Assembly: GCA_963782055.1 (NCBI GenBank)
Contig: CAWAIF010000003.1
Coordinates: 1,792,001-1,856,000, forward strand
Length of the DNA: 64,000 nt
Source: an uncultured delta proteobacterium
Lineage (GTDB): Bacteria > Myxococcota_A > Polyangia > Polyangiales > Polyangiaceae
Direction of reading: 5' to 3'
The notes beneath the pieces are model-generated. The model saw only the letters and a list, made by a program, of their open reading frames with translations. It did no database searches and was not told the origin of the DNA. Made by a program: the position numbers and the translations under genes. Below, in pieces: positions 39,821 to 48,413 of the stretch. Numbering within the stretch: position 1 is the first letter of the stretch; each line of letters opens with the position of its first letter.

Positions 39821-39970
39821 CGACGGCTCGCCGCAGACTTTACACGCCGGGGATCGTGCTTATCCGTTTGTTCGACAACGGCTGCGGAGCGCCCCCAGGG
39901 CGCACGCGATCAACGGCTCGAGCATAGGCCACGAGGGGGCGTCCCTCGCATGGCGTACGAGAGGTGTCTC

Positions 39971-40423
39971 ATGCGAATGACGGTGCTCAATGGGTTGCGG
40001 CGCGAGCCGCTCGCGGAGCTGGACGAGCTGCGCAGGGAGATGGATCGCTTCTTCGGAGGCGCGCTCGGCTTCTCGCCGCCCGCGTGGCCGGAGCCAGGCC
40101 TGCGCGAGCTGGCGGACCGCTACGAGCTCGCGCTGGACGTGCCCGGCCTCGTCGCCGGCGACGTCGAGATCAAGGTGGAAGAGGGCGTGCTGCGCCTGCG
40201 CGCCGAGCACAAGCCCGCCGCCGAGGAAGGAACGAAGGACGGCGACGACCTGAAGCTCGTCCGCAAGGAGCGCGCCGCGGTGCGCGTCGCCCGGAGCTTC
40301 GAGCTTCCGGCGCACGTCGACGTGGAGCGCATCGCCGCGACGCTGGACAAGGGCGTGCTCACCCTGACCGTCCCCAAGTCGGAGGCGGCCCGCAGCCGCA
40401 CCGTGGAAGTGAAAGGAGCCTGA
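39971..40423 (+). CDS. Hsp20/alpha-crystallin small heat-shock protein
   Basis: LDVPGL..D..I.V, RSFELP..VD...I.A.LDKGVLTLTVPK. Confidence 0.9.
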   Translation: MRMTVLNGLRREPLAELDELRREMDRFFGGALGFSPPAWPEPGLRELADRYELALDVPGLVAGDVEIKVEEGVLRLRAEHKPAAEEGTKDGDDLKLVRKERAAVRVARSFELPAHVDVERIAATLDKGVLTLTVPKSEAARSRTVEVKGA

Positions 40424-40425
40424 CG

Positions 40426-40734
40426 ATGAGCGCGGAGAAGGAGAAGCTGCTGGTCCGTCCCCCCACCGATGTGCTCGAGGGCAAGGACGCCTTCGTGCTG
40501 GTCGCCGAGGTGCCCGGCGTGGGGCCGGAAGATCTGGACGTGCGCGTCGACAAGGGCCTGCTCCTGCTGGACGCGAAGCGTGAAGGCCGCGTCGCCTACG
40601 CGCGGACGTTCCGGCTCCCCAAGGGGGTCGACGAGAACGCGATCGCCGCGACGCTGAAGGACGGCCTGGTGAGCATCCGCCTGCCGAAGGCGGAGAGCGC
40701 GAAGCCGCGGCTGGTCCCCATCGCCACGGGGTGA
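40426..40734 (+). CDS. Hsp20/alpha-crystallin small heat-shock protein, second copy
   Basis: RPPTDVLE, AEVPGV, YARTFRLP..VD...I.A.LKDGLVSIRLPK. Confidence 0.88.
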   Translation: MSAEKEKLLVRPPTDVLEGKDAFVLVAEVPGVGPEDLDVRVDKGLLLLDAKREGRVAYARTFRLPKGVDENAIAATLKDGLVSIRLPKAESAKPRLVPIATG

Positions 40735-40832
40735 CGCGGGCGCGCTTGACGCCCATCCGCCCCGCCGACCATTCTCGGCCTCCCGGCTGAGGTCCCGCGC
40801 TCGCGCAGGCCGACAGCCCGAAGGGCACGAAG

Positions 40833-41423
40833 ATGGAGTCGTCGAAGAAGCAGACCATCCTGGAGGCCGCGACGCGCGTCTTCGCCCGCCACGGCTTCAA
40901 GAAGGCCTCCATCGACGAGATCGCCCAGGCCGCCGGGGTGGCGAAGGGCACCGTCTACCTCGCGGCGACCTCCAAGGAGGACCTCTTCTACCAGGTCCTG
41001 CACCGGGAGGTCCGCGCCTGGGTGGCGGAGATTTCCCGGCTCATTGACCCCCGGACCCCCGCGGACCAGCTCCTGGCCGTCATGGCCCAGACGGGCATGG
41101 ACTACCTCGCCGCACACCCCCTGGTCGGCGACCTCCTCTTCGGTAAGACCGCGGAATTACTGCCCCGCTGGTCCGACCGCCTGCTCGAGCTCCGGACCAT
41201 CGGCCACGCGAATGTGGTGGAGGTCCTACGGATCGGCATCAAGCAGGGCATTTTCCGGGCGGAGCTGGACGTGGAGGCGGTGGCGGCCCTGCTCCAGGAC
41301 ATGCAGCTCTCGACGGTCGTGTTCTACCGGCACGTCGGGGAGGAGGCCCTGGATCGGCGGAAAATGGCGGGATTTGACCTGGTGTTGAACGGGTTGAGGG
41401 TCAGGGGAGGGGGAGGCGCGTGA
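40833..41423 (+). CDS. TetR/AcrR-family transcriptional regulator
   Basis: ILEAA..VF...GF..ASIDEIA..AGVAKGTVY....SKEDLF. Confidence 0.92.
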   Translation: MESSKKQTILEAATRVFARHGFKKASIDEIAQAAGVAKGTVYLAATSKEDLFYQVLHREVRAWVAEISRLIDPRTPADQLLAVMAQTGMDYLAAHPLVGDLLFGKTAELLPRWSDRLLELRTIGHANVVEVLRIGIKQGIFRAELDVEAVAALLQDMQLSTVVFYRHVGEEALDRRKMAGFDLVLNGLRVRGGGGA

Positions 41424-41515: not shown

Positions 41516-41522
41516 AGAGGAG
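41516..41522 (+). promoter_or_regulatory. Shine-Dalgarno site of the lasso precursor
   Basis: AGAGGAG ending 8 nt before the ATG at 41531. Confidence 0.7.
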
Positions 41523-41530
41523 AATGCTCG

Positions 41531-41695
41531 ATGACCGATCCCAACGCCGAGGTGAAGGAGGCTCCTGCGGAGCAGGAGACGCCGAAGAAGCGCCCGTACG
41601 TGGCGCCCCGGCTCGTGGAGCTGGGGAAGGTGCGGGATCTGACGGCGGCGGGCGGGGCTTCTAGCACCGATGGTGGTTTCACTCGACGCCCGTAG
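41531..41695 (+). CDS. Lasso peptide precursor (54 aa; absent from the ORF track)
   Basis: MTDPNAEVKEAPAEQETPKKRPYVAPRLVELGKVRDLTA-AGGASSTDGGFTRRP: YxxPxLxxxGxxxxxT leader motif, Thr at -2, core Ala1 with Asp8. Confidence 0.9.
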   Translation: MTDPNAEVKEAPAEQETPKKRPYVAPRLVELGKVRDLTAAGGASSTDGGFTRRP

Positions 41696-43112
41696 GCAAC
41701 TGTTGATCTCCGGTCCCTTCGGGCTGCCTCGACTCTACTACTCCGTTGGTGACCACCGTGTCGCGCCTGAGTTGGATCGTCTGAGGCGCATCACCGACGC
41801 AGAACCGGACGATGCAGGTCTCGCGGGCTGGTGCACCGGAATCCGTGACGCTGATGCCGGCACCACACTCTTCACCCGCCTCCGCCGGCTTCAACCGTTC
41901 GAGACCATTCCAGCATCCTCTGATGATGCGGGCCGTTCCGCGCAGATGCCCGTCCTGCCGTCCCGAGCGTGGGACCGTCGATCTCCTGCAGACCTGGCGA
42001 CTGAACTCCGCGCGCGTCTGTTCAGCGCCGTCGCGAGGATTACGAAGGGAGCCCACAGGGTGGCGGTGATGCTTGGGGGCCTAGACTCAAGCGCGGTACT
42101 CAGTATCTTGACGAGGCTCTTCCCACCGACTTCCCTCTTCGCCATCACTATCCTGTTTGAAGAGGGGGAGCGCGATGCTCCATATGCTGAGGCCTTGTGT
42201 CGCCACTTCGGCGTAAGATGGTATCCGTTACCCTTGTCGAGAGCGGTGCCGGTAGAGGCGTTTGTGGTGGCTGATGCTCACCCCTGCCTCTCGCCCCACG
42301 CCGGTAGCGAGCTTGGAGCTTTTCGGCTGGCCGCAGAGCTGGGCGCCGACGTTGTCGTCACGGCAACGCTTGGCGACGCGGCGTTCGGGGGAAATCTTGG
42401 CCAAATTGGCCGCCTCTACGCCCGCCGTCATCCCATCGCGGCCGCTCGCCTCGCGCTTCGCGCTCAGCTTCCGTGGCATCCGAGTCCGCTCCGACGTGTG
42501 CGCAGTTTGCTCGTTGCACCGAACATCCGCGACCGTATGCCCGAGGTTGTACGCCGGTGGCGCTCGCGCCGGCAATGGAGAGACAGGGCTCCTTGGGTTA
42601 CGCCCCACTTTTCGAGACTACTGGAGCGACATGAGCTTTCCGCCGCCAAGCCATACTTTATTAGTACTACGCCGGCGGCTTGGCTGCGAGAGCTGGTTGC
42701 AAACGTCGATGTGTTGACCGTCACGGCCGGGCTCTCGGCCTTCGCCCAAACCTCTGGACTTCGTTGGCGGGACGCGCTCTTTGATGTGCCTCTGCTCGCG
42801 TTTCTGGCTGCTATTCCCATCGAGCGGCTACTTGATTGCAACAAGTTTCGAGGCTTGCTTCGTCGAGCGATGGCGGGCTGGATGCCGGACCCTGTTCGCT
42901 TGCGGGCTGGCAAGGCATCCATGAACGGCCGCAAGCGACACTTCCGGGCTGACGACTTGAGGGCGATGGGGGAGTTTGCCCGAGCGAGACAACTCGCGAA
43001 GCGGGGGCTTGTCGACTCGGCGGCGCTGCGTGCTGCGTTCGAACACGCCGACGACATCTCGCCCATTTGGCGTTTTCTGGCTGCCGAAGCTTGGTTGCAA
43101 CGGGTGGCTTGA
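41670..43112 (+). CDS. Lasso cyclase (asparagine-synthetase-like, C protein)
   Basis: PFGLPRLYY, GGLDSS PP-loop, LGDAAFGG, LLRRAMAGWMPDPVRLRAGK, AEAWL; adjacent to the precursor. Start uncertain. Confidence 0.85.
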   Translation: MVVSLDARRQLLISGPFGLPRLYYSVGDHRVAPELDRLRRITDAEPDDAGLAGWCTGIRDADAGTTLFTRLRRLQPFETIPASSDDAGRSAQMPVLPSRAWDRRSPADLATELRARLFSAVARITKGAHRVAVMLGGLDSSAVLSILTRLFPPTSLFAITILFEEGERDAPYAEALCRHFGVRWYPLPLSRAVPVEAFVVADAHPCLSPHAGSELGAFRLAAELGADVVVTATLGDAAFGGNLGQIGRLYARRHPIAAARLALRAQLPWHPSPLRRVRSLLVAPNIRDRMPEVVRRWRSRRQWRDRAPWVTPHFSRLLERHELSAAKPYFISTTPAAWLRELVANVDVLTVTAGLSAFAQTSGLRWRDALFDVPLLAFLAAIPIERLLDCNKFRGLLRRAMAGWMPDPVRLRAGKASMNGRKRHFRADDLRAMGEFARARQLAKRGLVDSAALRAAFEHADDISPIWRFLAAEAWLQRVA

Positions 43113-43837
43113 TGACTGTAGCAGCTGGCATTCCCTGCCTGGTGAACAGCGTGGCCGGCGGATATTCCGCGGAGTGGCCGGGCTTGGGTAGTCTCCGCAT
43201 TCAGGGCTCTTCAACTGTTCACCATACCTATGTTGATGATGCAGTTGCCGCCGAGAAGTGGCGCCGCGGTCCCGCGATGGCCGTGGAAAGATACTTGCGT
43301 CGCACCGGCGTCGGATTTCACGCGTCGGCTGTCAGTTTGCCCAGTGGCCACGCCATTGTCTTCGCCGGGGCAAGCGGTGCCGGAAAGTCCACCGCCGCCG
43401 CGGTCTTGTGTCTTCGAATGGGAGCAAGCTTGCTGGCAGATGACGTCTGCATCGGCAAGATCGACCGCGGTCAACTCTGGATAGAGCCCTCGGAGTCGCA
43501 GCACTGGCTGGATGGCCCGGCGCGCGAGCGTCTCGCGTACCCGCGTGGCCAGGGTCCTAAGCGGCCAGTGGCCGCCAGCTCGCTGGCCCACGCCCCTATC
43601 CCGGCCGCGAAGCTTGTGGCGCTGCGTGATGATGGGCCCGTGCAGCCCGTGCGCCTTCGTGGCCTGGAGGCGCTGACCGCGATAGCAGCGGCGTCGATGG
43701 CTCCCCACGTGGATGCTGAGGCGCAGAGTCGAGCCGTCGAGGATCTGGATCGGTTCGTCGTGATCGGGCGGCTCGTGGAGGTGGTGGCCTGCTGTCGTCT
43801 CCCCGATGATCTCCTGCTGCGGAAACTGGTGGCGTGA
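43112..43837 (+). CDS. HPr-kinase-like kinase (lasso-associated)
   Basis: FHASAV, Walker A GASGAGKST, LLADD; TGATG coupling to the cyclase stop. Confidence 0.82.
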   Translation: MTVAAGIPCLVNSVAGGYSAEWPGLGSLRIQGSSTVHHTYVDDAVAAEKWRRGPAMAVERYLRRTGVGFHASAVSLPSGHAIVFAGASGAGKSTAAAVLCLRMGASLLADDVCIGKIDRGQLWIEPSESQHWLDGPARERLAYPRGQGPKRPVAASSLAHAPIPAAKLVALRDDGPVQPVRLRGLEALTAIAAASMAPHVDAEAQSRAVEDLDRFVVIGRLVEVVACCRLPDDLLLRKLVA

Positions 43838-44124
43838 TGGAACGGGCTCTGACTTCCGACCGCTTCCAGGTGGCTGAGCACGTGCACGCCCGCGAGTTCG
43901 ACGGGGAGATGGTCGTGCTCGATCTGCAGTCAGGCACCTACTTCGGCCTCGACGAAGTGGGAGCCTTCTGCTGGCAGGCGCTGGGCGCCGGTCGTGCGGT
44001 CTCCGAGGTTGCGGGAGAGATCGCGGCCGTCTACGACGTCTCCCGAGACGAGGCTCTTCGGGATCTTCTAGCCTTGGCCGACGAATTATTGCAGCGGCAC
44101 CTCGTCCAACGGAGGGCACCATGA
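43837..44124 (+). CDS. PqqD-family RiPP recognition element (lasso B1)
   Basis: DGEMVVLDL.SGTYFGLDEVG..CW..L ... YDVS......DL..L..EL; TGATG coupling. Confidence 0.92.
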   Translation: MERALTSDRFQVAEHVHAREFDGEMVVLDLQSGTYFGLDEVGAFCWQALGAGRAVSEVAGEIAAVYDVSRDEALRDLLALADELLQRHLVQRRAP

Positions 44125-44507
44125 GCGGCCTGCACGTCGCCTCACGATTGGCGCTGCGGCTTCTTCGCCCACGCCAGGCTTTTCGGGTGGTGGCCGCCCT
44201 GGGGCGCCTCGTGCCCTCGCTCGACCGCACGGAGGCCGAGGCCTACGCGGTGAACCTGTCCGGGAGGGGCAGCTGCCTCTCCCGATCCGTCGCGGTGGCC
44301 GCTCGTCTTCCCGGCGCGAAGGTCATGATCGGCGTGGCGCCCGTCGGGTACGGGGCGGTGCGCGCCGCGCTCTACGGGGCAAGGCGCGGGGAGGTGCTCA
44401 AGGCGCATGCCTGGGTCGAGGTGGATGGGCGCCCCCTCGCAGGACAGCGGCCCCTGGGCAAGGTTCTGGCGACGCTCGAGGTAGCTCGACCAGTCACCGA
44501 TTCATGA
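44121..44507 (+). CDS. Lasso leader peptidase (transglutaminase-like, B2)
   Basis: CLSRS catalytic Cys, IGV, AHAWVE His motif; ATGA overlap with B1. Confidence 0.88.
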   Translation: MSGLHVASRLALRLLRPRQAFRVVAALGRLVPSLDRTEAEAYAVNLSGRGSCLSRSVAVAARLPGAKVMIGVAPVGYGAVRAALYGARRGEVLKAHAWVEVDGRPLAGQRPLGKVLATLEVARPVTDS

Positions 44508-44537: not shown

Positions 44538-45443
44538 ATGAGGAACTTGTCACGCATCGCAGCGATGGCTGGAGGGATCGTGGCCTGCAACGTCATCGCC
44601 TGGACGTCGATGGTGGGTTGCAGCGGAGACGACAACGCAATCCCCGATGGGGGCGATGCGGCCCCTGACAACACCCAGATAGATGTCTTCGTGCCCGACG
44701 TGCAGGGCCAGGACGTCGTGGGCGACGAGGACGCTGGCACCAACCCCGACGCTCCCTATGACGCAGCGTCTCTCCTAGCCTTCCCCGCCGAGGAAGCGCT
44801 GGCGAGCTGTGGTCGTCTCCGGACGTGCTGCTACGGCGCCGACGCTGGGGTCGCTCTCACCAAATGCATTGGACATGTTAGTCCACTTGGGATCAATGGC
44901 ACCCTCGTGGAATTGAGTCTCCCAGGCGTGCTTGATGGCGGGCATCTTCACCTGGATGAGACGACGGCAAACTCCTGTCTCGCAGCACTCAGTACCTTCT
45001 CGTGCCCGGTGATGCCGGAGTCCGAATACCGGAACGTCACACAGAATTGCTACGGGGCCGTGTCCGGTACCCTTCCCATCGGGGCTCAGGGGTGCAAGAC
45101 GAGCGTTGAGTGCGTGCCGGGAGCGTACTGCGCTGCTGCGACTGCGCCCGACGGCGGTCCCACGAAGGAGTGTTATGTTGTTGGCGATGCCGGCTCGCCC
45201 TGTACCGCATCCAACATCCAGTGCATGTACCGCGGGTATCTAGGCCAGAACCAGCTTCGTTGTGCCATTGACGGTGGGTCCACGGGGACATGTGGTCCCC
45301 AGCTCCAGAACGGTGCGAAGTGCAACTACTCCTTCGACTGTCTGTCGCAAACCTGCGACGAGACGGGCCATTGCGGTACTGCCTTCACACTGACGGATCC
45401 GGGGACTTGCGACTACCTCTTCTACAGCGACGCCGGGCTCTAG
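44538..45443 (+). CDS. Cys-rich lipoprotein
   Basis: AAGGAG RBS, MVGC lipobox, about 20 Cys; lower GC like the lasso genes. Confidence 0.75.
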   Translation: MRNLSRIAAMAGGIVACNVIAWTSMVGCSGDDNAIPDGGDAAPDNTQIDVFVPDVQGQDVVGDEDAGTNPDAPYDAASLLAFPAEEALASCGRLRTCCYGADAGVALTKCIGHVSPLGINGTLVELSLPGVLDGGHLHLDETTANSCLAALSTFSCPVMPESEYRNVTQNCYGAVSGTLPIGAQGCKTSVECVPGAYCAAATAPDGGPTKECYVVGDAGSPCTASNIQCMYRGYLGQNQLRCAIDGGSTGTCGPQLQNGAKCNYSFDCLSQTCDETGHCGTAFTLTDPGTCDYLFYSDAGL

Positions 45444-45461: not shown

Positions 45462-47066
45462 ATGACGTCTCGCCTCACCGCACTGCGCCGAGCAGGTCCC
45501 TGGACCGCGCTCGGCGCGGCGCTTTTGTTCACCGAGCGCGTCGCCATCTTCGCCGCCGCCTCCGGTCTCGCCGCGCGGAGCGCCCGCGCCGCGCTCATCG
45601 CCGGGGCCGGCGCCTCCGCACTCCACCTGACCCGCTCCGCCTTCGGCTCCCTCGCCCGCACGCGGAGCCAGGCGGCGCTCTACGACGAGGCGCTCACCGC
45701 CGTGCTCGAGGGGGACGTGCTGGCGGTACAGGGCGAGAAGCTCCAGGCGACGCTCTTCTCGGCCATCGACGCCGCCGCGCGTGTCGGCGCCACCGCCGTT
45801 CCCTCGCTCATCGGTGACGGGCTCGCCGCCGCCGTCCTCGGCGTGTGGGTCGTCGCGGGCACGCCCACCGCGACCTGGGCCGTCGCGGGCGCCGCGCTCG
45901 CCGCGGGCCTCGTCCTCGCCCTGATCTCCCGTCGCGTCGCCGGCGCCGCCTCCGACCGGTTCTGGGCCGCGCACGAGCGCGTCGCGCGGCACCTCGTCGA
46001 CGGCGTGGACGGGCGCGTCGACCTCGCCGCGAGCGGTGAGGTCCCCGCCTTCCGCGAGGGCCTGCAGAGCGCCGTCTCGTCGCAGCGCTCCGTCGCGCGC
46101 CGCGCGGCCATGCTCGAGGCCTTCGCGGGACGTGCGCCCATGGCCGCCGCGGTCTTCGCCGCGCTGGGGGCCGTCCTCGCGCTTCATCCGTCGCTCGCCG
46201 GGACCGGCCTGGCGCACCTGATCGTGCTCGCCGGCGTCATGCCGCCCTTCGCGGGGCTCGCGATGTCCCTCGCGCAGGTGGCGCGCGCTCGCGGTCCGCT
46301 CCGCGCGCTGGACGCTCTCCTCCGCTCTCCGCGCATGGACGCAGGCGGTTCCTCGCAGCCTGCCGTGGCGGCCATCGATCTCCGGGGCGTGACCGTCCGC
46401 TACGGCGAGACGGTCGCCCTCGACGGGGTGACCATCCACCTGGAGCCGTCCGGCGTGCACGTACTCGTGGGTCCCAACGGGTGTGGAAAGACGACGCTCC
46501 TCGGCGTGCTCGCCCGGCTCGTTCGACCGTCCGACGGCGAGATCCTGGTCGGGGGCGACACGCTGGATGCGCTCGACCTCCGCGCCTGGCGTGCATCGCT
46601 CGGCTACCTCTCGCAGCGCCCGTACCTCCCGGTGCGCTGCTCGGTCCGCGTCGCGATGCGCTTCGTCGCCCCGCGCGCGGACGACGAGGCGCTGCGGGCT
46701 GCGCTGCGGCGGACGCGCGCGTGGGAGGTGCTCGCGAAGAAGTCGCCGGACGATCCGCTCTCCACCCCGGTCGACGGCCTGTCCGCCGGCGAGCGCCAGC
46801 GCGTCGCCCTCGCCCGCGTCCTGGTGCGCCAGCCTCGCGTGCTCCTGCTCGACGAGCCGGACGCCAACCTCGACGCCGAAGGCCGCGCGCTGCTCGTCCG
46901 GCTGCTCCGCGAGCTGGGGGAGTCGTGCTGCGTCGTCTGCGCGGCGCATGGCCGAGAGATCCGGGAAGCCGCCGATGTTCTGGTCCACCTCGAAGCAGGC
47001 CGGGTGGGCAGCGAGGAGCAGCCGCACCGTCCCCTCACCTCCGGGCGGCTCGCCTCGTCCGCGTGA
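45462..47066 (+). CDS. ABC exporter, fused TMD-NBD
   Basis: Several TM helices, Walker A GPNGCGKTT, signature LSAGERQR, Walker B LLLDEP, H-loop. Confidence 0.88.
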   Translation: MTSRLTALRRAGPWTALGAALLFTERVAIFAAASGLAARSARAALIAGAGASALHLTRSAFGSLARTRSQAALYDEALTAVLEGDVLAVQGEKLQATLFSAIDAAARVGATAVPSLIGDGLAAAVLGVWVVAGTPTATWAVAGAALAAGLVLALISRRVAGAASDRFWAAHERVARHLVDGVDGRVDLAASGEVPAFREGLQSAVSSQRSVARRAAMLEAFAGRAPMAAAVFAALGAVLALHPSLAGTGLAHLIVLAGVMPPFAGLAMSLAQVARARGPLRALDALLRSPRMDAGGSSQPAVAAIDLRGVTVRYGETVALDGVTIHLEPSGVHVLVGPNGCGKTTLLGVLARLVRPSDGEILVGGDTLDALDLRAWRASLGYLSQRPYLPVRCSVRVAMRFVAPRADDEALRAALRRTRAWEVLAKKSPDDPLSTPVDGLSAGERQRVALARVLVRQPRVLLLDEPDANLDAEGRALLVRLLRELGESCCVVCAAHGREIREAADVLVHLEAGRVGSEEQPHRPLTSGRLASSA

Positions 47067-47087: not shown

Positions 47088-48413
47088 TCACCGTTCCCTC
47101 ACCTCCGGACACACCGGGCTCACCTCCCGCCCCGTCCCGCGCCCCACCGTCACCTTCTCCGGCTCTCCAAACGCCGCGATCAGCGCAAAATGCTCGTACC
47201 GGCACGGGGTCACCTCCAGCGCCGGGACCCCGCGCGCCCGCAGCTCCAGACCCCGGTCGATCTGCGCGTCCCGGCGCTCCGTCGGGCCGTTGCCCGGCAC
47301 CTCCCGCCACCGGCCCGCCACCCCGCTCAGCCACGCCACCCCGCCGATCACCACCGCCGCCACGAGCCACGCCTCCCGCCCGGGCCGGCCGTGGATCCCC
47401 GCCACCACCAGCGTCCGCGCGCCGTCCGCACCGGCGCACGCGAGCACCGCGAAGAGCGTCATCATCGCGCGCGCCGGATGGTGCGTGGGCGCGGCGTCCG
47501 CCAGATCGCCCGCCACGAGGAAGACCATGACCAGCAGCGCGCCGGCGAGCGGCAAGGCCCAGCGCGCGCGGAAGGCCCTCGACCGCAAGCACAGCACCGC
47601 CGGGATGGCGGCCAGCGGGATCTCCGGCGCCCCGTCCAGCGCCGCGCGCGGGTAGGCGAGCAGACGATCGACCAGCGGGCCTCCGCCGCCCAGCGCCTTG
47701 CGGTAGTTCGTGACGCGCGCCAGGAAGTGCACCGGGCTGCCGTGCGCGTGCGCGTTCCACGCCATCCAGGCGAGCGGTCCCAGCGCCGCCAGCGCCGCCG
47801 CCGTCGTCAGGCCGCGCCTCTCGCCGCGCTCCGCCTTCATCGCGCGCCACCCCGCCACGCACGCCACCATCGCCGCGATGGGCCACGCCTCGTAGCGCGA
47901 CAGCGCCGCGACCAGCGAGAACGCGCCGGCCGCCGTCAGCGCCGCCGGGCGCCGGTCCGCCAGCAGCACCAGCGCCGCCGCCGCGAGCAGCCCCGCCCAT
48001 CCCTCGGGCACCGTCGCCACCCCGAGCCACACGCTCCACGGGGTCAACGCCGCGAGCCCCGCGCCCAGCAGCGCGGAGATGCGCGGCACCTGCACCGCTC
48101 GCATGGCGCCGTAGAGCACCAGCGGCGCGGCGGTCCCGAGCACGAACGCAAGCCCGCGCGCGGTCGCCAGCGACCGCCCGAACGCCATCATGGTCGCTCC
48201 CGTCAGCCAGAAGGGCAGGGGAAGCCAGCTCGTGCCGCTCGGGTCCAGCCGCGGCGCGTGCGCGAAGCTCTCGGCGATGACCGTGCGCGCGTAGTCGTCG
48301 TCCGACACCTGCGCGAAGCCCGCGTGCAGGACGTAGAGCATCGCCCCCGTCCGGGCGAGCAGCAGCGCGAGCGCGCCGAGGTCGAGCGCCGGCGGCGCCG
48401 CGGCCCGCGTCAC
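47088..48413 (-). CDS. Polytopic membrane protein, GT-C glycosyltransferase-like
   Basis: DDDYAR first loop, WLPLPFW, RYEAW, many TM helices; start at GTG coupled to secG. Confidence 0.6.
   Translation of the reverse strand: MTRAAAPPALDLGALALLLARTGAMLYVLHAGFAQVSDDDYARTVIAESFAHAPRLDPSGTSWLPLPFWLTGATMMAFGRSLATARGLAFVLGTAAPLVLYGAMRAVQVPRISALLGAGLAALTPWSVWLGVATVPEGWAGLLAAAALVLLADRRPAALTAAGAFSLVAALSRYEAWPIAAMVACVAGWRAMKAERGERRGLTTAAALAALGPLAWMAWNAHAHGSPVHFLARVTNYRKALGGGGPLVDRLLAYPRAALDGAPEIPLAAIPAVLCLRSRAFRARWALPLAGALLVMVFLVAGDLADAAPTHHPARAMMTLFAVLACAGADGARTLVVAGIHGRPGREAWLVAAVVIGGVAWLSGVAGRWREVPGNGPTERRDAQIDRGLELRARGVPALEVTPCRYEHFALIAAFGEPEKVTVGRGTGREVSPVCPEVRER

Follow-up and report, generated by a model that had tools for sequence, protein, structure and literature searches.

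Organization of the locus

The window analyzed here is a 64,000-nucleotide stretch of DNA from an uncultured delta proteobacterium (contig CAWAIF010000003.1). On its plus strand lies a cassette of seven genes, in the order A-C-K-B1-B2-lipoprotein-D (Table 1), which is best explained as a biosynthetic cluster for a class II lasso peptide. An initial annotation had described a complete cluster at positions 41531 to 44507, made up of five co-oriented genes with TGATG, TGATG and ATGA junctions. These genes and junctions were confirmed at those positions on the plus strand. The cassette is not complete within those limits, since two further members, encoding a lipoprotein and an ATP-binding cassette (ABC) exporter, follow downstream. 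The overlaps or translational coupling also proposed for the five genes apply to C/K and K/B1 (both TGATG) and to B1/B2 (ATGA). A and C are joined in another way, by a 26-nucleotide overlap in which the ATG of the cyclase is formed by the codons for core residues Asp8 and Gly9; alternative cyclase starts are CTG 41700 or TTG 41703. The open reading frames (ORFs) for A, K, B1, B2 and the lipoprotein are identical to public gene calls, and C is protein P0001.

Table 1. Features of the cassette (positions in the window; bit scores with model cut-offs in brackets; aa, amino acids; RiPP, ribosomally synthesized, post-translationally modified peptide)
Feature	Position	Strand	Size and evidence
AGGAG ribosome-binding site	41518-41522	+	8 nucleotides upstream of precursor ATG; sequence reading
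A, lasso precursor	41531-41695	+	54 aa; NF033521, 24.7 bits (19)
C, macrolactam synthetase	41670-43112	+	480 aa; asparagine-synthetase fold; PF00733, 96.4 bits (21)
K, HPrK-like precursor kinase	43112-43837	+	241 aa; weak family matches and motif
B1, PqqD-type RiPP recognition element	43837-44124	+	95 aa; PF05402, 63.5 bits (23.4)
B2, transglutaminase-like leader peptidase	44121-44507	+	128 aa; Cys52, His96; PF13471, 27.2 bits (26), marginal
Cys-rich predicted lipoprotein	44538-45443	+	301 aa, 22 Cys; cassette member by conserved linkage
D, ABC exporter (membrane domain and ATPase)	45462-47066	+	PF00005, 100.5 bits

On every genetic criterion covered by Pfam, the locus is a split-B lasso cluster. 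The three Pfam models that the initial annotation had named as checks (PF00733, PF05402 and PF13471) were all passed, PF13471 marginally, and its description of a kinase-containing lasso cluster, which is of the split-B kind, is supported. The Cys, His and Trp of B2 are invariant in 106 of 106 B2 proteins of the family. When the 7.58-Mb genome was scanned, the sole over-cut-off match to each of PF13471 (one of seven matches), PF05402 (one of two) and NF033521 (one of three) fell within the same 3-kb locus. Because leader, recognition-element and peptidase models meet over cut-off only here, their grouping is not a chance event; no other lasso locus was found in this genome. K lies below every curated cut-off (TIGR04352, 23.1 versus 200 bits; HprK_rel_A and Hpr_kinase_C matches are weak). 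The narrower NCBIfam lasso models NF033530, NF033536 and NF033537 leave the B1 and B2 of the window below cut-off, and the score of B2 with NF033537 (24.1 bits, cut-off 33) should be counted against a lasso assignment.

An Rfam scan of the window gave no match. A scan of the window for promoters gave no sigma-70-like site, and terminator-like sites occurred at chance frequency. One soil DNA run gave thin reads over 7 of 30 bins. The myxobacterial origin suggested earlier was borne out by the adjoining pgk gene, whose best named match (72%) is in a Polyangiaceae metagenome-assembled genome, and from such sequence matches we infer that the host family is Polyangiaceae.

For comparisons, 110 other loci were used, 10 of them from a cyclase search and 100 from among 150 listed B2 matches, where the contig gave room (45 more matches were not on the list). 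With profiles derived from the window proteins, 77 of the resulting 111 loci (window included) gave a match to C, 94 to K, 93 to B1 and 107 to B2.

Precursor and core peptide

The precursor consists of a 39-residue leader and a 15-residue core, AGGASSTDGGFTRRP. The leader contains the YxxPxL motif (Tyr-17, Pro-14, Leu-12) and Thr at -2, a geometry that agrees with that of characterized lasso systems (PMC10368454). The core begins with Ala1, has Gly at position 3 and acceptor Asp8, and ends in Pro, without a C-terminal Ser. A macrolactam between Ala1 and Asp8 is predicted, which would create an 8-residue ring and a 7-residue tail; by general lasso rules, Phe11 and Arg13/Arg14 are likely plugs in the threaded peptide. 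The computed monoisotopic mass is 1417.670 Da for the cyclized form and 1497.636 Da for the monophosphorylated form. The core had been reported as unrecognized, and this stands, the best of 91 related precursors being alike at 8 of 15 positions.

A precursor-like leader with a short core was found in 68 of the 111 loci (67 related loci and the window). Positions 7 to 9 hold an acceptor Asp or Glu in 61 of the 63 precursors that belong to four kinase clades; for a further set of precursors the count is 18 of 18. One related locus (L092:9142-9635) has a tandem precursor pair with near-identical leaders and different cores. Another, in the same genus (L020:7721-7939, genome G002), has an 8-residue core without Asp or Glu that is possibly broken; its C, K, B1 and B2 frames are open.

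A separate set of 19 loci (L106:5380-8363 and 18 others, e.g., L093, L116 and L117) contains B1, B2, a kinase and a radical SAM protein, with no cyclase match. A small ORF family is present in all 19. In the 14 members shown, the leader is lasso-like and the core, mostly rich in Met, lacks an Asp/Glu acceptor. We read these loci as probably using the leader machinery of lasso systems to make a RiPP of another kind; a literature search on radical SAM proteins with lasso leaders found no paper.

Kinase and predicted phosphorylation site

K retains H70, G86-x-x-G89-x-G91-K92-S93 and D110-D111, which are conserved in 90 family kinases, and the same motif matters in BsfK (PMC10368454) and in PadeK and ThcoK (PMC9266682). 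A phmmer search of K against the PDB returned P-loop matches only. Paeninodin-type kinases modify a C-terminal Ser (PMC9266682, PMC5067487, PMC8498205), BsfK phosphorylates ring Ser3 (PMC10368454) and LppK phosphorylates internal Ser3 (PMC13381572). The window core offers neither a C-terminal Ser nor a ring Ser3.

A quick IQ-TREE phylogeny was computed for 90 kinases, 21 of the 111 loci having been dropped because the kinase was missing or broken. Five groups were obtained, with the window kinase in group Y (support 98). By FastTree, the kinases of loci with Ile(-2), which come from another family of the phylum, form a clade (97) apart from that of the window (100). Groups E1 and E2 occupy polysaccharide loci. 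Their cores end in Ser in 19 of 23 cases and contain a Ser among the final three positions in 23 of 23; three places before the acceptor (acceptor-3), Ser or Thr occurs in 0 of 22. The corresponding values for groups Y and H are 1 of 40 for a C-terminal Ser and 24 of 39 for Ser/Thr at acceptor-3, and 38 of 39 carry Ser or Thr in the ring. We then used an out-of-sample set of 40 more regions, collected mostly by lipoprotein match, of which 22 had a kinase, all in group Y. Their unfused cores had no C-terminal Ser (0/18) and always a ring Ser/Thr (18/18). On these counts the inference of a ring site stood up, and a fixed position within the ring became less well supported: acceptor-3 carried Ser/Thr in 24 of 39 cores at first and then in 7 of 18 out of sample, and a strict acceptor-3 phosphosite rule was rejected.

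From this covariation, it appears marginally favored that K phosphorylates a site in the ring. Among Ser5, Ser6, Thr7 and Thr12, the best guess for the phosphosite itself would be Ser5, favored because neither a C-terminal Ser nor Ser3 exists (position 3 is Gly), and this assignment should be considered tentative. Several observations count against a ring site, or against Ser5 in particular. Ring Ser/Thr is also present in 11 of 22 E-group cores with a C-terminal Ser. The loci are kin, such that a small number of evolutionary events underlies the Ser contrast, and deep nodes of the kinase phylogeny are poorly resolved in both IQ-TREE and FastTree. Out of sample, Ser/Thr was more often at position 3 (10/18) than at acceptor-3 (7/18), and was at one of the two in 15/18.

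Five clade-Y precursors from three genera (L025:8094-8570, minus strand; L139:9867-10388, minus strand; L272, L273 and L274) run in frame into a domain of ∼100 residues resembling Peptidase_S74. The two fusions tested gave 22.7 and 19 bits with PF13884 (cut-off 22), and the motif is S-[ST]-x-[DE]-x-K. Self-cleavage of the S74-like domain, presumably by the rule known for this family, would leave fused cores ending in Ser. Some clade-Y kinases may then see a classical C-terminal Ser, which is a further point against a ring site. A literature search on such S74-precursor fusions found no paper. Two S74-like domains occur elsewhere in the window genome, far from the lasso locus (G000:C3:2412282-2412590 and C3:6912210-6912518).

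The same data bear on whether a lasso peptide is made but left unphosphorylated, the kinase having lost its peptide substrate or acting elsewhere, for example on the lipoprotein or a small molecule. This would fit the lack of either known phosphosite, the long branch of the window kinase and its lack of an Arg and of an acidic residue that kinases in clades Y and H typically have (alignment columns at positions 180 and 191 of the window kinase), as well as the S74-fused relatives that could regenerate a C-terminal Ser. It is nevertheless unlikely, given that every catalytic residue of the kinase is retained, that kinases of clade-Y relatives are under purifying selection (dN/dS, the ratio of nonsynonymous to synonymous substitution rates, of 0.05-0.54) even without a C-terminal Ser, and that ring Ser/Thr is near-universal in these clades.

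Cyclase

C lacks the glutaminase Cys1, is shortened at its N-terminus, and has a PP-loop that is one residue short and without the first Ser. Its structure model is of high quality (predicted local distance difference test score, pLDDT, 92.3; predicted template modeling score, pTM, 0.92) and matches the asparagine-synthetase/beta-lactam-synthetase fold (PDB 1ct9, 1jgt and 7ylz) with Z values of 20-22. Residue 1 of the model aligns to residue 122 of E. coli AsnB (Z 20.2, root-mean-square deviation (rmsd) 3.5, 324 aligned residues), and C has no counterpart for the first 103-125 residues of the 1ct9, 1jgt and 7ylz chains. With the glutaminase part and its Cys1 absent, C cannot be a glutamine-dependent amidotransferase; likewise, TIGR01536 gave 50.9 against a cut-off of 267.1, and no AsnB-type glutaminase domain is present. 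All 60 aligned cyclases share the ATP-site residues G136, G137, D139, S140, D236, R412 and K415. A phmmer search of C against the PDB gave no match, no solved lasso cyclase was among the matches of the structure searches, and when the genome was scanned with the cyclase alone, none of 471 candidate stretches held a relative.

Several features argue against a functional lasso cyclase. Compared with most relatives, C is missing ∼90 residues at its N-terminus, as judged by the distance from precursor stop to PP-loop (128 codons in the window versus 200-237 in 15 of 17 co-oriented loci), the first PP-loop Ser is missing, and scores with the curated lasso-cyclase models are low (NF033535, 37.9 with cut-off 525; NF033561, 70.8 with cut-off 300). 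Note that two family cyclases tested also fell short of these models, so the lineage is not covered by them. A short form is likewise seen in P0002 (478 residues, 40% identical), P0007, P0016 and P0017 (472-478 residues), and the short PP-loop is found in 12 of 60 aligned rows, some of which are near-duplicates. We read C as a probable compact, working cyclase.

Alternatively, the shortened enzyme could be inactive or non-threading, and the product a linear phosphopeptide (as in LPP) or a branched-cyclic peptide. In addition to the absence of ∼120 N-terminal-domain residues and of the first PP-loop Ser, the 7-residue tail is short and begins Gly-Gly, the bsf system gave no mature peptide (PMC10368454), and cyclase-less relatives of the machinery exist, both in the radical-SAM loci and in a published system (PMC13381572). 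We consider this outcome improbable. The short form has recurred in other proteins, the model of C is well folded, and an acceptor Asp/Glu at positions 7 to 9 is kept in nearly all precursors that accompany a cyclase and missing from the cyclase-less radical-SAM precursors shown. A compact cyclase that closes the Ala1-Asp8 ring is the preferred reading.

In five related loci (L145, L148, L150, L123 and L136) a second asparagine-synthetase-like gene lies near the cluster; in L145, L148 and L150 it adjoins the precursor.

Lipoprotein and exporter

Besides a signal peptide and a lipobox-like Cys28, the predicted lipoprotein has an acidic linker and a helical disulfide domain, followed by Dickkopf/colipase-like modules. 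Sixteen Cys are invariant among 15 homologues. Its model (pLDDT 75.8) aligned to Dkk1 CRD2 with Z 6.0 and rmsd 2.5 over 62 residues (VIA-align), a middling value that was the best of the Dickkopf/colipase matches. Foldseek gave no match at E≤0.001, and the ESM Atlas gave leads under 0.9 only, with the nearest clusters mostly from Myxococcota.

Using the window protein alone as query, the lipoprotein was found in 43 of 382 other family genomes. With G307 left out, 42 were checked, and 38 of them have a copy next to lasso genes; in two of the four unlinked cases, the region ends at a contig edge. Within the genus, it was found in all three B2-positive genomes and in none of the three B2-negative ones. 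It also stays by the lasso genes where their order is rearranged or the cassette lies off the gap site (L020, L059, L287, L292 and L305). In a 1.8-Mb genome (L022; G032:C1:344000-358000), A, C, K, B1, B2, lipoprotein and exporter are all kept, rearranged and with G+C content at third codon positions (GC3) of 0.3-0.5. The syntenic loci contain the exporter as well, whereas in four congeners without the cassette at this site no exporter was found there, next to the membrane-protein gene (window 47091-48404). D is the probable exporter of the peptide.

That lipoprotein and exporter are mere neighbors, placed by an insertion hot spot next to gap-pgk-tpi-secG and unrelated to the peptide, was also considered. 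Unlinked lipoprotein paralogues do occur (L300-L302 and L307-L310), 4 of 21 clade-Y loci have no lipoprotein, and the exporter has a genome-like GC3 of 0.91. The 38 of 42 linked copies, the persistence of the pairing in rearranged and off-gap loci, and its co-occurrence with B2 within the genus render this explanation doubtful. Linkage, strain-variable cores and retention in a small genome favor a surface or signaling role, or lipoprotein-based immunity, over a chance neighborhood. It is possible, judging from linkage only, that the peptide acts at the cell surface with the linked lipoprotein (in binding, display or immunity), although we do not hold this with confidence.

Other kinase groups adjoin other secreted Cys-rich or repeat proteins (DUF4215, RCC1 and Dicty_CTDC), which indicates that pairing with a surface protein recurs.

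Genomic setting and conservation

The cassette is flanked by tetR on one side and by secG-tpi-pgk-gap on the other, and the same order was found in G025, G187 and G205. Order and flanks also recur in other genera. GC3 is 0.66-0.81 for A through lipoprotein, versus 0.91-0.97 for flanking genes. Across loci, cassette medians are 0.74-0.78 compared with 0.84-0.87 for gap, pgk and tpi. Median identity to the counterpart proteins is 30-45% within the cassette and 59-78% in the flanks. In eight pairs of relatives, with one gene pair saturated, dN/dS ranged from 0.04 to 0.54 across C, K, B1, B2 and the lipoprotein; these values describe relatives, the window's own genes being without a close relative, which limits their weight in favor of function here.

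The low GC3 could suggest a recent horizontal island. This was rejected as unnecessary, as other genera have the same order and flanks and such cassettes generally have lower GC3; cassettes may have been exchanged repeatedly at this one site. A silent or decaying island with no product in this host, which the low GC3, the absence of the cassette from the site in four congeners and the long branches of the window proteins might suggest, is very improbable, since all seven frames are open, coupling is exact, catalytic residues are intact and the lower GC3, being general, is no mark of decay.

Upstream, window positions 39950-41423 contain two small heat-shock-like genes (labeled by sequence reading) and a TetR regulator. 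This tetR also precedes the cassette in G025, G187 and G205, and the whole block is missing together with the cassette in G003, where an upstream sigma/FecR-like pair lies ∼600 bp from the membrane-protein gene, leaving an empty site. The TetR block may regulate the cluster. The membrane-protein gene (window 47091-48404, minus strand) encodes a conserved polytopic protein without a Pfam match and lies between exporter and secG, with or without a cassette. A PF14907 nucleotidyltransferase was considered as a cassette member and rejected, the match being ∼0.65 Mb away. At 22 loci (L113:10348-11685 and homologues), a PRMT-like methyltransferase (PrmA, PRMT_C) lies by clusters whose cores are often rich in Arg/Lys; none was found in the window genome with one query.

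Distribution

The initial annotation had regarded a lasso cluster as unusual for a myxobacterium. At the genome level it is ordinary: of 383 family genomes, 178 gave a match to the lasso B2 model NF033537 at E≤0.01 and 139 exceeded its cut-off (a tally that includes one unpublished genome, G307), and 109 of 217 high-quality genomes matched, and a kinase-containing cluster, bsf of Bradymonas, has been published (PMC10368454). When the phylum was sampled evenly, a match at E≤0.001 was present in 64 of 301 genomes. The literature searched contained no characterized Polyangiaceae or Myxococcales lasso peptide; large precursor tables, which possibly list myxobacterial clusters, were outside this search.

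Comparison with known systems

The locus had been called paeninodin-type, with A-C-kinase-B1-B2 given as the paeninodin gene order. Neither part of this description fits. The paeninodin order is C-A-K-B1-B2-D (PMC5067487) and that of the window A-C-K-B1-B2-lipoprotein-D; furthermore, the C-terminal Ser that is the defining substrate of the type, and strictly conserved in it (PMC9266682, PMC5067487, PMC8498205), is absent from the window core. What the paeninodin, ThcoK, SyanK and pseudomycoidin systems share with the window are the five core gene types, an exporter and the His-Lys-Asp-Asp residues of the kinase, which in those systems acts on the linear precursor (PMC9266682, PMC5067487, PMC8498205). 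Paeninodin-type clusters are often found in polysaccharide loci (PMC13381572), and those of the window's clade by gap-pgk-tpi-secG.

The bsf cluster of Bradymonas sediminis FA350 also belongs to a deltaproteobacterial predator and has split B1/B2, C, an HPrK-like kinase with H-G-G-G-K-S-D-D and an ABC exporter; its precursor has YxxPxL at -17/-14/-12, a ring from residue 1 to Asp8 and no C-terminal Ser (PMC10368454). Ring phosphorylation, reported for bsf (PMC10368454), is shared with the window only as far as covariation suggests. The bsf system has Ile(-2), the Ser3 phosphosite and a nucleotidyltransferase (PMC10368454), whereas the window precursor has Thr(-2) and Gly3, and its cassette includes a short cyclase and a linked lipoprotein but lacks a nucleotidyltransferase. 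The combination of Ile/Val(-2) with Ser/Thr at core position 3, by which the bsf type is told, is thus not that of the window. Note that mature lasso peptide from bsf was not obtained in five heterologous hosts (PMC10368454), which weighs against expecting one from a similar cluster.

The LPP (linear polyphosphorylated) peptides of Bacillota resemble the window system in their recognition element, HprK-like kinase and MsbA-like exporter, and their kinase acts on an internal Ser (PMC13381572). They use a signal-peptidase-like protease and no cyclase (PMC13381572), in contrast to the B2, C and acceptor Asp of the window; Pfam and NCBIfam scans of the cassette proteins found no signal-peptidase family. 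AsnB and beta-lactam synthetase have in common with C the C-terminal ATP-pyrophosphatase synthetase domain. The window cassette is built to work like paeninodin and bsf clusters yet belongs to neither subtype.

Proposed pathway

In the pathway that we propose, B1 would bind the YxxPxL leader (step 1), and K, aided by B1, would add phosphate to a Ser/Thr in the ring segment of the linear precursor, with Ser5 the likeliest (step 2). B2 would then cleave after Thr(-2)-Ala(-1) (step 3), C would adenylate Asp8 and close the Ala1-Asp8 ring around the tail (step 4), and D would export the product (step 5). Steps 1, 3, 4 and 5 are adopted from established lasso biosynthesis and step 2 from covariation, applied to the genes, motifs, fold, conservation and linkage described above; the catalytic residues of C, K and B2, being present and conserved, were counted in favor. 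We infer that the locus makes a cyclized, threaded product, and the whole path, from leader binding through ring phosphorylation, cleavage and ring closure to export, is judged probable.

Biological implications

As a single cluster, the window locus is one of many, and the one myxobacterial family represents a large and unexplored source of such clusters, across which the kinase clade varies jointly with the type of core and with the neighboring surface protein. The literature covered describes two phosphosites, and since the window encodes neither, a third regiospecificity is possible. The linked lipoprotein provides a concrete candidate partner for the peptide. A bolder and rather unlikely extension is that clade-Y cassettes constitute a fast-diverging peptide-plus-receptor system in myxobacteria of the Polyangiaceae type, in which a ring-phosphorylated lasso peptide (with a third type of site, here Ser5) would be exported and then bound or displayed by its own disulfide-rich lipoprotein, serving as a strain-specific signal or identity tag and not as an antibiotic. 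The biological role of paeninodins and LPPs has been called unknown (PMC13381572); if true, the peptide-plus-receptor reading would supply the first biological role for kinase-tailored lasso peptides.

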